From the IMG/VR virus record IMGVR_UViG_3300025018_002313: a DNA stretch of 64,000 nucleotides; one strand, given 5' to 3'. Origin of the DNA: a virus. The notes under the pieces are model-generated. The model was not told where the DNA came from, searched no databases, and saw only the letters and a program-made list of their open reading frames with translations. Within the stretch, counting starts at the first letter, position 1; each line of letters starts with the position of its first letter. A program made the position numbers and the translations under genes. Shown piece by piece: positions 44,815 to 63,970 of this stretch.

Positions 44815-44992
44815 AAAAATTTTTTGAATTAGGGTATATAGGGATACGGGTTATTTTATGAAAAAAAATATTTCTGATGGCATTGCGTATACCACACTAC
44901 ACTGTGCACGCTCCTATTCACAAATTGGGCACGCTTAACACCGTGATCTTGGTCCTGTTCCTATATCGCACTCCAGTTCCTACAACTTGGTC

Positions 44993-45175
44993 CTAGCAGA
45001 GCCGAACAGCATCCCAAGGCAGAGCCATAGTGCAAGCCTGATCTTCAGTCAGATGGACTTCCTGGATGCATGAACTGGCATCAGGCAACTCCTTCTGTGC
45101 AACTACATCCTTGCCGTCCTTCTCTGCGAGCCGTTCGTTAATCTCAACCAACATCTCCAACCTACTCATCACCAA
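44993..45175 (-). CDS. hypothetical early protein
   Basis: 60-aa ORF preceded by family promoter and AAGGAGG RBS. Confidence 0.4.
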   Translation of the reverse strand: MVMSRLEMLVEINERLAEKDGKDVVAQKELPDASSCIQEVHLTEDQACTMALPWDAVRLC

Positions 45176-45198
45176 CCTCCTTTGTTTAACATACCTAT

Positions 45199-45227
45199 AT
45201 GATATGAAATAACGTTATGGTAATCAA
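45199..45227 (-). promoter_or_regulatory. sigma70-like early promoter (family)
   Basis: TTGATT-N17-TATCAT then ATAGGTATGTTAAACAAAGGAGG leader. Confidence 0.6.
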
Positions 45228-45269
45228 GCATAAAACTAAAGCGCATTCGATGGACTGGAGGACACCTCT

Positions 45270-45464
45270 CTATGCACACAGTTTCATTCTAATCAAACCA
45301 AAGACACATTCACAGGCTTGTCTTAAAGCAGCCGAATGTAACCCACGCTTGACAGCATCTTCAGCTTTGTCTCGATCTGCATAGAGTCCACTATCAATCA
45401 GATCAGACGCAACCATATCAACTGCCTGCTCCTTCATCCAACCCGCTACTGTTTTATAGTCCAT
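45270..45464 (-). CDS. hypothetical early protein
   Basis: Start set to ATG 45464 (MDYKTVAGW...) adjacent to RBS and promoter; ORF track extends upstream through promoter. Confidence 0.4.
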   Translation of the reverse strand: MDYKTVAGWMKEQAVDMVASDLIDSGLYADRDKAEDAVKRGLHSAALRQACECVFGLIRMKLCA

Positions 45465-45491
45465 ATCACACCCCCTTCTTAGGTTACCTAT

Positions 45492-45520
45492 ATGATATGC
45501 TATATTGATTGGATAAGCAA
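45492..45520 (-). promoter_or_regulatory. sigma70-like early promoter (family)
   Basis: TTGCTT-N17-TATCAT-ATAGGTAACC. Confidence 0.55.
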
Positions 45521-45712
45521 GAACAAAATGAAACAGTTTAGCTTGTAGTAATGTTAAGCGCATTACGTTTTAACGTAAATTTTACTTGCATTCATATGCA
45601 CTTAAGTTACATACGCATATGTTACGTCTACATCTACATAAGATACATCTGCAAATGTAAGTTCACCTGGAGGCCATCGAGTGACGACGCAATGCGCTTG
45701 ACATCTACAGAG

Positions 45713-45749
45713 ACAAAAAAAGCCTGAGGGCTTTTGGCTCCTCAGGCTT
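45713..45749 (-). terminator. rho-independent terminator (conserved module)
   Basis: agcctgagg-gcttttggct-cctcaggct hairpin then TTTTTTTGTCTC on - strand. Confidence 0.65.
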
Positions 45750-45766
45750 GCTGAATTCTGGTTAAC

Positions 45767-61076: not shown

Positions 61077-61117
61077 GAGAATTAGAGAGAATGCATAAAT
61101 AATTAAAAGGAGATGTA

Positions 61118-61690
61118 ATGAGTGAATACACCACAACATATTATCAAAAGAATAAAGAACGAATATTGAAAAAGCAAGCTGAGAAGAGAGCGACTAACCC
61201 TGAATATGGTAAGGACTACTATGTTAAAAATCGTGATGATTTGAGAGCTAAACAAGCTGAATATTGGGCAAAGAATGCTGACCGATTTAATAATCCGGAC
61301 TACTGGAAGCAGTATTATGCTGAGAATAAGGCTGAGATTCAACGAAAACAAACCTATCGAAATAAACATGATCCACAGACGCATATTGCAATGAAGTTAA
61401 GACATAGAATATCTGGAGCTATAAAAAGACAAGGAACAATTAAAAAGGGGCATACATCAGATCTTCTCGATTGTACGTATGCAGAGTTGAGAGAGCATCT
61501 AGAGAGCAAATTTACAAAAGGAATGTCTTGGGCTAATTACGGTCGCGGTAAAGGTAAATGGAATATTGATCATATTAAACCGTGCTCTGCTTTTGATTTA
61601 ACAAAGGAAGAAGAGCAACAAAAATGTTTTCATTGGACTAATCTTCAACCACTTTGGATGGAAGATAATGTGAGAAAAGGTGGAGCATAA
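61118..61690 (+). CDS. HNH-family homing-endonuclease-like protein (paralog 4 of 4)
   Basis: GMSWANYGRGKGKWNIDHIKPCSAFDL...CFHWTNLQPLWMEDNVRKGGA; N-terminal YY.KN...KQAEY repeats. Confidence 0.65.
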   Translation: MSEYTTTYYQKNKERILKKQAEKRATNPEYGKDYYVKNRDDLRAKQAEYWAKNADRFNNPDYWKQYYAENKAEIQRKQTYRNKHDPQTHIAMKLRHRISGAIKRQGTIKKGHTSDLLDCTYAELREHLESKFTKGMSWANYGRGKGKWNIDHIKPCSAFDLTKEEEQQKCFHWTNLQPLWMEDNVRKGGA

Positions 61691-61702
61691 CTCCACCTTT
61701 TT
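61679..61702 (+). terminator. rho-independent terminator
   Basis: ggtggag-cataa-ctccacc then TTTTT. Confidence 0.55.
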
Positions 61703-61725
61703 CTCTATAACTCGTTGAAGGCGAA

Positions 61726-62856
61726 CTATAAATCAATATCAACCATAAACTTGCCGTACTTAGCAGCAAACTCCGGTCCCTTCTTGAGAAGTCGTAGACC
61801 ATTACCGAATTGCTGTACATCATAGTCACGCATCATACGAAGCGTATTCATCGTGAAGTCCTGCCGAGGAAAGTTCTCTGCAACTGCAAAGATGTTACTC
61901 AGCAACTCTTTATTCTTCGGATCCTTCTGAAACCGCTCAGCCAGACCAGCAGACACTGCATACATTGCATCCGATTTGAGTGTTGCTGCAGACTTCGGAT
62001 TCTTGAATAAGTGATCCCAATTGATCTGCTGGTAGTGCTTCACATAAGCCTGGAACTCAGTTGCAAAAGCTTCACCACAGGAGATTGAGATGAGCATATG
62101 AACTTTATCCGAGAGGATATCTCGCTCATTGATCAGAGTTGATGCGCGATGCACACCACGAGGAGTTGACGGCTTCTCAGTCTTACCGACATCGACCTTG
62201 TACAGATAAGAACCGCGCCACCCAATGAACGAGATGAGATGCGGATTAAGTCGAACACTCATCGCCCAATCAATCCAATCCTTAATGTCACATTCCATCT
62301 CACATTCAGCGAAGCGATCACGCAACGGAAGCGGCATATCAAATGTATGAGCACGATCCTGCTGGCGATTACCAGCCGCAAAAATGAACACATCTTTACC
62401 CAGTCGCCGGTCTGCGATCACTCGGTCATGGATCGCTGAGTATGTAATGGACTGCACAATCGGAGCTGCGAGGTTGATCTCATCAAAGAAGATCGAACCG
62501 TGTGCATCTCGTTTCGAGAAATACACTACCCAAGAGTACGGAATGTTCTCGAGCATCTCTGTGTTCGCCATATTCGGTACACCCTGCAGAGAAGTTGTAT
62601 CCATCTGGGATGTGCGAAAATCACCGAAGATGTAATACTTGTCCGGGTTCTTGATGCATTCCATTTTCTCAGCAATGGTCAAATCAGACCATTCCTGGAA
62701 AATCAACCCTCGATTTTTGGCCTGTTTGGAGAAAACCTGACGAGGGATCGCAGACTTACCGATTCCAGGCCCACCTCTAACGAACAGCGGCTGACGAACC
62801 CCTTCACAGTCCACAAGCAGTTCAGCATATTCTTTCGGTTTCAGTATGAGTGACAT
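61726..62856 (-). CDS. MoxR/CobS-like AAA+ ATPase (AAA_5 type)
   Basis: Walker A LFVRGGPGIGKSAIP, Walker B IFFDEINLAAP; 376 aa. Confidence 0.65.
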   Translation of the reverse strand: MSLILKPKEYAELLVDCEGVRQPLFVRGGPGIGKSAIPRQVFSKQAKNRGLIFQEWSDLTIAEKMECIKNPDKYYIFGDFRTSQMDTTSLQGVPNMANTEMLENIPYSWVVYFSKRDAHGSIFFDEINLAAPIVQSITYSAIHDRVIADRRLGKDVFIFAAGNRQQDRAHTFDMPLPLRDRFAECEMECDIKDWIDWAMSVRLNPHLISFIGWRGSYLYKVDVGKTEKPSTPRGVHRASTLINERDILSDKVHMLISISCGEAFATEFQAYVKHYQQINWDHLFKNPKSAATLKSDAMYAVSAGLAERFQKDPKNKELLSNIFAVAENFPRQDFTMNTLRMMRDYDVQQFGNGLRLLKKGPEFAAKYGKFMVDIDL

Positions 62857-62892
62857 GACGTAATCCTTTCCTTGTTATTTTTAATACACCTC

Positions 62893-62921
62893 TAATATAT
62901 GAAATATGGAGGTGACATGCA
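62893..62921 (-). promoter_or_regulatory. sigma70-like early promoter (family)
   Basis: TTGCAT-N17-TATATT-AGAGGTGTATTAAAAATAACAAGGAAAGG. Confidence 0.5.
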
Positions 62922-62947
62922 AGATTAATCTGTAATAAATTGCATAT

Positions 62948-63910
62948 CTATTCACTATGACTTGCAATCCGAATCATATTCTTCCATACTAGCTCATCCT
63001 CATATCGTTCTCGTACACGAATAGCTTTAATAAATGTCCGAAGATTGTAACATTTAAAAGTATCTTCAATAGATTCGAGGAAATCGAGCACTTCAGTTTT
63101 AATCGTGAGAGGAGCTTTTGGTTCAATGACATCTATTATAGTACGCATATAAGTAGATACTTCAGCTCTTGACATTTCAAGGTTAACGCACATTGTTCTT
63201 GATCTGATAGCTTCATCAACCTCTTCGAGAGGTTTGTTTGAGACAAAGATAATCTTTCCCTTGAAATCAAATTGATTTTCTAATTCAGAATCTTTCGGGA
63301 TAGAGCGACTGATCCAATGAATGGTTCGTGTATCATATGAATCGAGAGCAGCTTTTAATATATTGGCAGATAGCTCATTCTCCCATGCTTTGTCACAATC
63401 ATCAAACACAACAATCTTCTCACGGTTGTGAAATAGAATACTATAAAGTCCGAGAGGAGATGAATGTCCTTTTATGTATACAAAATTTGTTGGATCTTTC
63501 AATCCGTTTCTTGTCATTTGTTTCTTAACAAGAAATGTTTTACCAATTCCAGCTGCACCAGTTAAGAACATAGAAGGTGAGCGTCCTTCAATAACGAGCT
63601 GAACGAATTTAGAAACGAGATCAAATCGTTCCTTTACATTAAATTCGTTCATAGGATTTTCGAGCTTTTGTGGCTGAACTGGAGATTGTGGATCAGACAC
63701 ATCACATCTTACACCTTCATTTGTCTTGATTGGCTTATAATATGTTTTTCTGCCACGTTTTAGTTCTTCAAGCTGGTCTGTTGCAACTAATGAGATGATA
63801 ACATTATCAACATACGGCTTACTGGCACCGGTAAGTCCTGATATTTTCGAGGAATGAAACTCTTCTTCTTGTTCATTAATAACCTGTAAGATATACTCGC
63901 GTTTCTTCAC
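62948..63910 (-). CDS. P-loop NTPase (AAA-like) with HTH-like N-terminal region
   Basis: Walker A MFLTGAAGIGKTFLV, Walker B IVVFDDCD; N-terminal ISGLTGASKPYVDNVIISL. Confidence 0.5.
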   Translation of the reverse strand: MKKREYILQVINEQEEEFHSSKISGLTGASKPYVDNVIISLVATDQLEELKRGRKTYYKPIKTNEGVRCDVSDPQSPVQPQKLENPMNEFNVKERFDLVSKFVQLVIEGRSPSMFLTGAAGIGKTFLVKKQMTRNGLKDPTNFVYIKGHSSPLGLYSILFHNREKIVVFDDCDKAWENELSANILKAALDSYDTRTIHWISRSIPKDSELENQFDFKGKIIFVSNKPLEEVDEAIRSRTMCVNLEMSRAEVSTYMRTIIDVIEPKAPLTIKTEVLDFLESIEDTFKCYNLRTFIKAIRVRERYEDELVWKNMIRIASHSE

Positions 63911-63941
63911 ATAACCTCCTGTGTGTTTATAATCTCTTACA

Positions 63942-63970
63942 TTATATAAAAATTACTAATTTATTGCAAT
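63942..63970 (-). promoter_or_regulatory. consensus sigma70 promoter TTGCAA-N17-TATAAT
   Basis: ttgcaataaattagtaatttttatataat on - strand, then caggagg RBS and ATG 63910. Confidence 0.6.

Follow-up and report, generated by a model that had tools for sequence, protein, structure and literature searches.

An array of PeSL-like promoter cassettes, probably of the early sigma-70 type, in a hyperplastic region of an uncultured, distantly T4-related phage

Cassettes that combine a promoter with a terminator, the promoter early stem-loops (PeSLs), are known in the T4-like phages RB49/phi1, T4/PST and KVP40/nt-1 (Arbiol et al. 2010, PMC2839356; Comeau et al. 2014, PMC4122927). In these accounts, a PeSL is made up of a stem-loop terminator and a sigma-70-like promoter with an upstream A/T-rich stretch, and it ends with a Shine–Dalgarno (SD) sequence and an ATG. 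PeSLs are described there as concentrated in hyperplastic regions, by orphan genes and at indel boundaries, and as able to recombine into mini-circles (PMC2839356, PMC4122927). The promoter consensus given for the nt-1 copies is TTGYVH-N17-TAWWAT, and some cassettes of that phage are built on MotA-type middle promoters (PMC4122927). Here, a comparable array is described from a stretch of viral DNA of 64,000 nucleotides (IMG/VR record IMGVR_UViG_3300025018_002313), referred to throughout as the window. Within the window, a block of 19 kb, from 45 to 64 kb, carries a repeated module upstream of nearly every small gene, with a promoter of strong bacterial type, a leader and, in part, a terminator. 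It is probable, at approximately 72 %, that these modules correspond to the PeSLs of T4-like phages, as early promoter–terminator cassettes of the host sigma-70 type that lie in a hyperplastic region.

The likeness to PeSLs includes sigma-70-like −35 and −10 hexamers 17 nt apart (22 copies, one with 16 nt), an A/T-rich region upstream of the −35, an SD and start codon at the 3′ end, a promoter consensus close to that of nt-1, and the clustering of many copies in a hyperplastic region of a T4-type genome beside orphan genes. Cassettes of the window, degraded ones included, also coincide with indels between relatives, and in one case (p47373, Table 1) there has been a crossover inside the cassette, as in the mini-circles of RB49. 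The terminators of the window lie 60–100 nt upstream of the −35, in approximately one-third of the copies, whereas the described PeSL stem-loop is adjacent to or inside the promoter. The phage also differs in being uncultured and only distantly related to T4 (large terminase, TerL, ~32 % identical). Two further features set the array apart, a strongly conserved discriminator/start block, ATAGGTAT.TTAA, and a post-terminator AAGTGCA; neither was found in the PeSL descriptions examined. Since every sequence-level feature of a PeSL is present except the tight juxtaposition of stem-loop and promoter, the array is placed with the PeSLs. The arrangement is already known, and the window adds a further, clear-cut case of it without defining a new type of element.

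Other phage systems bear comparison. The early promoters of T4 are host sigma-70 promoters with an extended phage-specific consensus, are very strong, and drive small non-essential early genes. The cassettes likewise form a large family with conserved positions outside the hexamers, in upstream A/T tracts and in bases flanking the −10, although the sequence details differ and early firing is here a prediction from the sigma-70-type architecture and the T4 paradigm. In the middle promoters of T4, a MotA box (TGCTT) centred near −30, 11–13 nt from the −10, replaces the −35. TGCTT is present in approximately one-third to two-thirds of the window's copies, where it ends 21 nt before the −10 and a normal TTG −35 is present; because of this spacing, the copies are not MotA-dependent middle promoters of the T4 type. 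The start-associated and extended start-associated sequences (SAS/ESAS) of cluster K mycobacteriophages and the stoperators of cluster A are short oriented motifs in intergenic gaps, thought to act in translation initiation or repressor binding. The cassette motif is also repeated in many gaps just upstream of start codons; however, those elements are not full −35/−10 promoters, whereas a two-block promoter geometry explains most of the conservation in the window.

A loose scan (TTG-N16-18-TAnnnT plus the downstream block), followed by hand curation, identified 22 minus-strand copies, from 45204 to 63946, and repeat finding recovers the same family; the module is also evident when the minus strand is read from 44.9 to 64 kb. 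The 19-mer TATCATATAGGTATGTTAA has nine matches at three or fewer mismatches, compared with 0.05 expected, all nine of them on the minus strand (45186–61053). A two-block weight matrix made from the 22 sites recovers 21 of them. Its scores for the seed sites are circular, which does not apply to the absence of other matches: above the shuffle maximum there is one extra site in the 64 kb, on the plus strand at 30713–30757, before a gene for a major vault protein (MVP) homologue. The DNA examined continues for ~9 kb beyond the window end, and there are zero cassettes in that part. The original prediction, of at least 21 copies upstream of minus-strand genes and of a copy before the plus-strand MVP gene, is therefore upheld in both count and coordinates: 22 copies plus one are present, far above chance, and the copy before the MVP gene is the sole matrix match outside the block.

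The consensus reads cTTGnnn-N17(..atTTCa)-TATnAT-ATAGGTAT.TTAAaaa-SD-ATG, with a spacer of 17 nt in 21 of the 22 copies and of 16 nt in p50512. When the copies are aligned on the −10, information content is 1.4–2.0 bits in TTG, 1.1–1.6 bits in TAT..T and 0.6–1.3 bits in ATAGGTA, in which GG is strongest; in the spacer, aTTTCa at the 3′ end is all that rises above ~0 bits. Upstream of the −35 is a weak A/T-rich block at −60 to −40, GCTTTAA..TTTTGTGC (TTTTGTG in the logo). ATAGGTA is followed by T.TTAAaaa and then by a GGAGG-type SD, 5–9 nt before the ATG, and every copy has a start codon with such an SD 12–46 nt (median 22) downstream. Transcription most likely begins, judging by this layout, at the A seven nucleotides after the −10. 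Promoter, leader and, often, terminator cassettes before small genes had been proposed from the letters of the window, as had conservation past the hexamers. Both proposals hold, the latter through the information content of ATAGGTA and the identity between orthologues in this heptamer (67–93 %; see below). Between 45.0 and 55.0 kb there are 18 promoters for ~21 minus-strand genes, and transcription units there are therefore largely monocistronic; at 56–64 kb the promoters stand at the head of longer operons.

A motif scan of metagenomes found contig Ga0114918_10009151 (L089, 8.1 kb), which has five exact matches and is syntenic to positions 45712–55520 of the window at 70–82 % identity. Conservation across the 15 orthologous promoter pairs is selective. 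The −10 is 92 % identical, the −35 82 %, the 14 nt after the −10 73 % and ATAGGTA 67–93 %, compared with 51 % in the first half of the spacer (27–73 % by position over its first nine positions) and 37 % far upstream. Constraint on the discriminator, ATAGGT, equals that on the −35 and is not readily accounted for by standard promoter elements. Within the window, the near-identical pairs p45497/p46313 and p45204/p47373 have kept the blocks and have diverged in the spacer and in the stretch between the upstream blocks. As the block is kept both among copies and between L089 orthologues, the pattern points to selection on the extra conserved positions and not to recent duplication. In p49389 the gene has been lost and the conserved downstream block has been lost too, which fits selection tied to expression of the downstream gene. 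Genome-specific concerted evolution of the leaders was considered and is not supported, since identity within genomes (0.51) is barely above that between genomes (0.39–0.46).

More distant relatives, found through an AAA ATPase (61–74 % identity), share the grammar TTG-N17-TAtnAT-AT.gGTA and have different leaders; a 72 % identical homologue of this ATPase is present on a 228-kb contig. In one of these relatives (L003, ATPase 61 % identical), genes are mostly polycistronic and the SD is almost absent, so the dense cassette array is a feature of the sub-lineage of the window. At three places in L003 (1272–1310, 3087–3125 and 6114–6150) a −10 box stands 6 nt before an ATG, a leaderless arrangement, which suggests that its host has different translation-initiation habits.

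Measured from the likely start, the leaders are 12–46 nt long (median 22), with minimum free energies (MFE) of 0 to −4.7 kcal/mol. They are A-rich (AU.UUAAaaa), slightly less structured than shuffles (mean z +0.55) and, at gathering score and at E≤1, have no match in Rfam. With leaders this short and unstructured, the shared RNA fold once suggested for them is not supported. A structured cis-regulatory leader RNA (riboswitch, attenuator or Rfam family) was likewise rejected, there being no conserved structure in the 5′ untranslated region (UTR). A leader mini-ORF was rejected because other copies read ATC, AAC, GTA or ATA where an ATG stands at the likely +1, which shows no conservation as a codon. 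RegB requires GG*AGRAYARAA, in which the A-rich part follows GGAG on its 3′ side, and the RegA site, which is A/U-rich, overlaps the AUG (PMC3014915). Neither of these T4 rules fits the cassettes, because the conserved block lies 5′ of the SD, and the copies vary both 3′ of GGAG and around the AUG; a regulator-binding site, also raised in the original prediction, is not favoured in this form. Among the individual leaders, that of p49313 (49256–49301, minus strand) is identical over all 46 nt in the window and L089, next to coding sequence that is ~76 % identical, and it could encode an upstream reading frame of 13 codons with its stop just upstream of the main start codon.

Intrinsic terminators, from a scan and by eye, precede ~8 of the 22 cassettes. 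The sequence TTTTTTGTCTC is present in three exact copies, and AAGTGCA or AAGCGCA lies 8–14 nt after the T-run in five cases. A second conserved module had been reported after many genes. The module is real, with the order T-run, GTCTC and AAGTGCA, and is kept at orthologous sites in L089; however, 'many' was an overstatement, as there are ~5 copies for ~35 genes. As a window-wide motif, TCAAAGTGCA was rejected, since its six occurrences at one mismatch, against 5.5 expected, are at chance level and only the post-terminator subset is meaningful. After terminators, AAGTGCA(C/T) is kept in L089 while its flanks diverge, and AAGTGCA stands 23–26 nt before a second kept block, ATGnGCTTTAA; the pair GTGCA-N20-30-ATGNGCT occurs three times, compared with 0.22 expected. 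Gene 46376–46540 has no cassette promoter, and only the pair AAGTGCA-N23-TATGTGAGCT is found upstream of it, followed directly by the SD. It is possible that this pair marks a second promoter class or a factor site, in which case TATGAAC and TATGTGAGC are possible candidate boxes of a class tied to AAGTGCA.

Between the window and L089 there are six indels in 9.8 kb, a density that marks the region as hyperplastic; the comparison is with this one relative of 8.1 kb. For five of the six, an end lies inside a cassette or within ~100 nt of one. In the first (a), L089 has a gene of 102 aa between two cassettes, Pa and Pb, where the window has a single cassette, p47373. This cassette agrees with Pa in its terminator, upstream block and −35, and with Pb in the end of its spacer, its −10, its leader and its gene, placing a crossover between the −35 hexamer and the −10 hexamer. 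This is the signature of cassette-to-cassette recombination, the event predicted by the PeSL model. In the second (b), an L089 gene of 99 aa has been reduced in the window to a promoter, SD and ATG TTT TAT TAG (p49389), with GGAAT microhomology at both ends. Neither of these L089-specific genes was found elsewhere in the window. The third (c) consists of two extra window genes (50829–51370) that bring promoter p51144 and have their joins at TAATG gene junctions. The other three (d–f) are due to plus-strand HNH/endonuclease VII-like genes, three of the four being present only in the window. The original prediction had also raised the idea of a recombination scaffold; one clean case, the p47373 chimera, bears this out, and the other indels are HNH insertions or illegitimate joins. 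Cassettes are involved in at least one exchange, with an equal contribution from homing endonucleases and illegitimate recombination.

Four paralogous HNH/endonuclease VII-like genes lie antisense between cassettes (47831–48310, 52198–52755, 54402–54917 and 61118–61690, all on the plus strand). The paralogues are 34–46 % identical to the first copy, carry the motif IDHIxPC..NLQPLW..N and match PHROG 1035 'endonuclease VII' (E=5e-15); a profile search against Pfam and PDB gave no match. The first three are missing from the syntenic L089, and they therefore behave as mobile free-standing homing endonuclease genes. Such genes, of the Seg and Mob families, are a second source of plasticity in T4-like phages (PMC4122927), and the four resemble them in occupying intergenic gaps in opposite orientation. 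Unlike parts of a cassette, they are its neighbours: HNH1 adjoins a cassette at its upstream edge and is ~100 nt from the −35 there; for HNH2 the distance to a −35 is ~40 nt. HNH3 interrupts a gene after approximately codon 19, and the 5′ end of this gene is present twice, as MGIEINVKEHKEIAPGV and MAGIVVNVKECEELAPGV (54344–55024). The downstream, complete copy is under its own atypical promoter, p54366, and L089 has a single intact gene. The locus has the look of a homing event in which a recoded target and a promoter came along.

Most genes of the 45–64 kb block have a cassette of their own, and the approximately one-third of cassettes that follow an intrinsic terminator would give monocistronic units. 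If the cassettes act as PeSLs do, host RNA polymerase with the primary sigma factor would fire the promoters immediately after infection. The extra conserved positions may tune promoter strength, start-site choice and escape at the DNA level, and ribosome loading at the RNA level. Because near-identical direct repeats recur, with ~50–130 nt of sequence in the same orientation every 300–700 bp, the cassettes could also serve as substrates for homologous recombination, which would delete, insert or swap the intervening genes, as described for PeSLs.

Several observations weigh against this reading. The strong conservation of GG at −3/−2 and the AAGTGCA near −90 go beyond the elements of a standard sigma-70 promoter, and the terminators, at 60–100 nt, are farther upstream of the −35 than published PeSL stem-loops. 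The T4 late-promoter motif TATAAATA is not enriched in the window (6 matches, 7.3 expected), and the regulatory paradigm of T4 may therefore apply only in part. A clean cassette-to-cassette crossover is seen in only one of the six indels, the other five being one GGAAT microhomology deletion, one TAATG junction join and three HNH insertions, and near-identical strains from other samples are colinear in eight contexts of gene 47116–47337. In addition, use of the host sigma factor and polymerase, the early timing, the exact start site and a role of the leader in translation are all predictions from sequence.

It is rather unlikely that TATCATATAGGTAT.TTAA, possibly with AAGTGCA, is instead the site of a phage factor (a phage sigma, a repressor shutting off the class, or a MotA/AsiA-like activator or sigma-appropriator), which would make the cassettes a phage-controlled temporal class. 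A canonical TTG-N17-TATnAT requires no extra factor, TGCTT is 21 nt from the −10 compared with 11–13 nt for the MotA box, no candidate factor gene was identified within the window, the ATAGGTA block is without dyad symmetry, and relatives with marker proteins 61–74 % identical share only AT.gGTA. A phage factor would nonetheless suit a discriminator that is as conserved as the −35 and kept between orthologues, the retention of AAGTGCA at L089 orthologous sites with diverged flanks, the excess of GTGCA-N20-30-ATGNGCT (3 compared with 0.22), the gene preceded by just this kind of pair, 46376–46540, and, in nt-1, the use of MotA-type middle promoters by some cassettes (PMC4122927). There is only a small chance that ATAGGT and AAGTGCA-N25-ATGnGCTTTAA are phage-factor sites of an overlapping second class (tandem early and middle promoters with a new type of activator box), or that the cassette is a site-specific, integron-like gene-capture unit.

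It is quite unlikely that the conservation after the −10 acts in the RNA, with AU.UUAAaaa as a translational enhancer or as a target of an RNase or repressor (RegB/RegA-like) that co-regulates early messages. The most conserved part, ATAGGT, is upstream of the likely start and hence outside the RNA, the RegB and RegA rules are not followed, the interval between SD and AUG is variable, and no structure or Rfam match was found. This is set against a conserved part that forms most of a very short 5′ UTR directly before GGAGG, the p49313 leader that is invariant between the window and L089 beside ~76 % identical coding sequence, and leaders that are A-rich and unstructured, like the ligands of RegA and ribosomal protein S1 (PMC3014915). 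Near-identical sub-families, such as p45497/p46313 and p45204/p47373, and the many mobile HNH genes of the region could suggest that the repeats are recent duplications or a small selfish mobile element, the extra positions being free of selection. However, those same pairs have diverged freely in the spacer and in the stretch from AAGTGCA to the upstream block with the flanking blocks kept, the blocks are kept in the orthologous copies of L089, a genome roughly 75–80 % identical, and p49389 lost its conserved downstream block along with its gene; this explanation is therefore very improbable.

As host-type early promoter–terminator cassettes, the copies widen the range of PeSL-type mobile regulatory cassettes beyond cultured coliphages and vibriophages, to a T4-related lineage that is distant and uncultured, and would support such cassettes as a general device of large myoviruses for expressing and shuffling accessory genes. 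The 22 copies and 15 orthologous copies offer a ready promoter and 5′ UTR consensus with an unusually constrained discriminator. No new class of biology is opened; the array, though neat, is what would be expected in the hyperplastic regions of T4-like phages.

Table 1. Cassette promoters and terminator modules of the window, with their coordinates and neighbouring genes.
Feature	Coordinates	Strand	Context
p63946 (TTGCAA-N17-TATAAT)	63924..63972	-	before AAA_16-like gene 62948-63910
p62899	62877..62925	-	before MoxR-like AAA ATPase 61726-62856; position kept in L002, L012, L013
p61053	61031..61079	-	before gene run 60838-61014, 60586-60837, 59861-60583
p59667	59645..59693	-	before DUF2201 gene 58271-59638 and polycistronic run down to 56113
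p54998	54976..55024	-	before 5′ gene fragment (~54870-54971) severed by HNH3; drives intact gene in L089
p54366, atypical (TATCAT-TAAAGAAAT, without ATAGGTA)	54344..54392	-	before 53675-54334; beside HNH3; no L089 counterpart
p53518	53496..53544	-	before 52801-53469
p52137	52115..52163	-	before 51853-52083
p51703	51681..51729	-	before 51375-51665 and 51164-51370
p51144	51122..51170	-	before 50829-51110; within two-gene insertion not in L089
p50512 (16-nt spacer)	50490..50537	-	before 50289-50480, 50084-50335 and ClpS-like 49803-50084
p49721	49699..49747	-	before 49521-49688
p49389, decayed 'empty' cassette (promoter, SD, ATG TTT TAT TAG)	49367..49415	-	99-aa L089 gene deleted
p49313	49291..49339	-	before 48923-49255; 46-nt leader
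p48895	48873..48921	-	before 48584-48850
p47712	47690..47738	-	before 47514-47678
p47373	47351..47399	-	before 47116-47337; chimera of L089 Pa and Pb
p47077	47055..47103	-	before 46652-47032
p46313	46291..46339	-	before 46022-46279
p45980	45958..46006	-	before 45767-45946
p45497	45475..45523	-	before 45270-45464
p45204, consensus copy	45182..45230	-	before 44993-45169
Cassette-type promoter TTGATT-N16-TATTAT-ATGAGGAT	30710..30757	+	only one outside block; before MVP-like 30791-33283
Bidirectional hairpin AAAAGGTGGAG-TTATG-CTCCACCTTTT	61675..61701	.	between AAA ATPase gene (-) and HNH4 (+); read from sequence
Intrinsic terminator	52764..52787	-	after 52801-53469; scan
Terminator (51796-51820), TTTTTTGTCTC, AAGTGCA (51772-51778)	51772..51820	-	
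Terminator (49481-49508), TCAAAGTGCA (49457-49466)	49457..49508	-	
Terminator hairpin (~47467-47496, by eye), TTTTTTGTCTC (47456-47466), TCAAAGTGCA (47441-47450)	47441..47496	-	
Hairpin GGGTCCC-TTCG-GGGACC, T-run, GAAGTGCA (46588-46594)	46588..46634	-	then small Cys-rich gene 46376-46540
Terminator (45718-45735), TTTTTTGTCTC, variant AAGCGCA (45693-45699)	45693..45735	-	

The window belongs to a Logan contig of 171.7 kb (SRR6053076_4915), and the same proteins are also found on contigs of 0.2–1 Mb. Encoded in the window are a tail sheath and tail tube, a baseplate hub and spike, a T4-type large terminase, a single-strand DNA-binding protein and a class II ribonucleotide reductase. TerL is of the T4 gp17 type, with 32–33 % identity to cyanomyovirus gp17, and megablast of 10 kb against a phage collection gave no match and no nucleotide-level relative. 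These findings are the basis for treating the source as a myovirus, uncultured and only distantly related to T4, whose terminase is T4-type. Viral contigs yielded no relative, either when scanned for the exact 19-mer or with a protein seed, and a tRNA search found zero tRNAs. The small genes between 45 and 64 kb are orphans, with PHROG or Pfam matches only for ClpS, DUF2201 and AAA domains.

Outside the cassette block, the MVP gene (30791–33283, plus strand) encodes 830 aa with the shoulder and repeat domains of major vault protein, and shares 44–46 % identity with proteins from three uncultured huge phages (LR756500, LR756501 and LR756503). Just downstream of the block are a QueE-like radical SAM gene (37363–38157, minus strand), belonging to the 7-deazaguanine pathway and hinting at DNA modification, and the class II ribonucleotide reductase gene (40768–43140, minus strand).

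Within the block, a paralogous family with the N-terminal motif C..(W/Y).YC..ER..KL...FG has three full copies and one truncated copy (48584–48850, 52801–53469, 53675–54334 and 54870–54971, all on the minus strand), each with its own cassette and without a family match. The stretch 54971–56113 comprises 1.1 kb without a called gene and holds four tandem-repeat arrays (26 nt x2, 15 nt x2.3, 40 nt x2.5 and 11 nt x2.3). Its portion at 54.97–55.52 kb is kept in L089, and the stretch could be a replication origin or other cis element. A short motif, GAAGCGTT(C/G)A, is repeated directly upstream of p50512 (50534–50565), a site kept in L089, and again inside the 40-nt tandem repeat (55806–55904). The Cys-rich gene 50555–50820 (minus strand) appears frameshifted relative to L089 at a TGGTCGTC repeat, and may be a pseudogene or a case of slippage.

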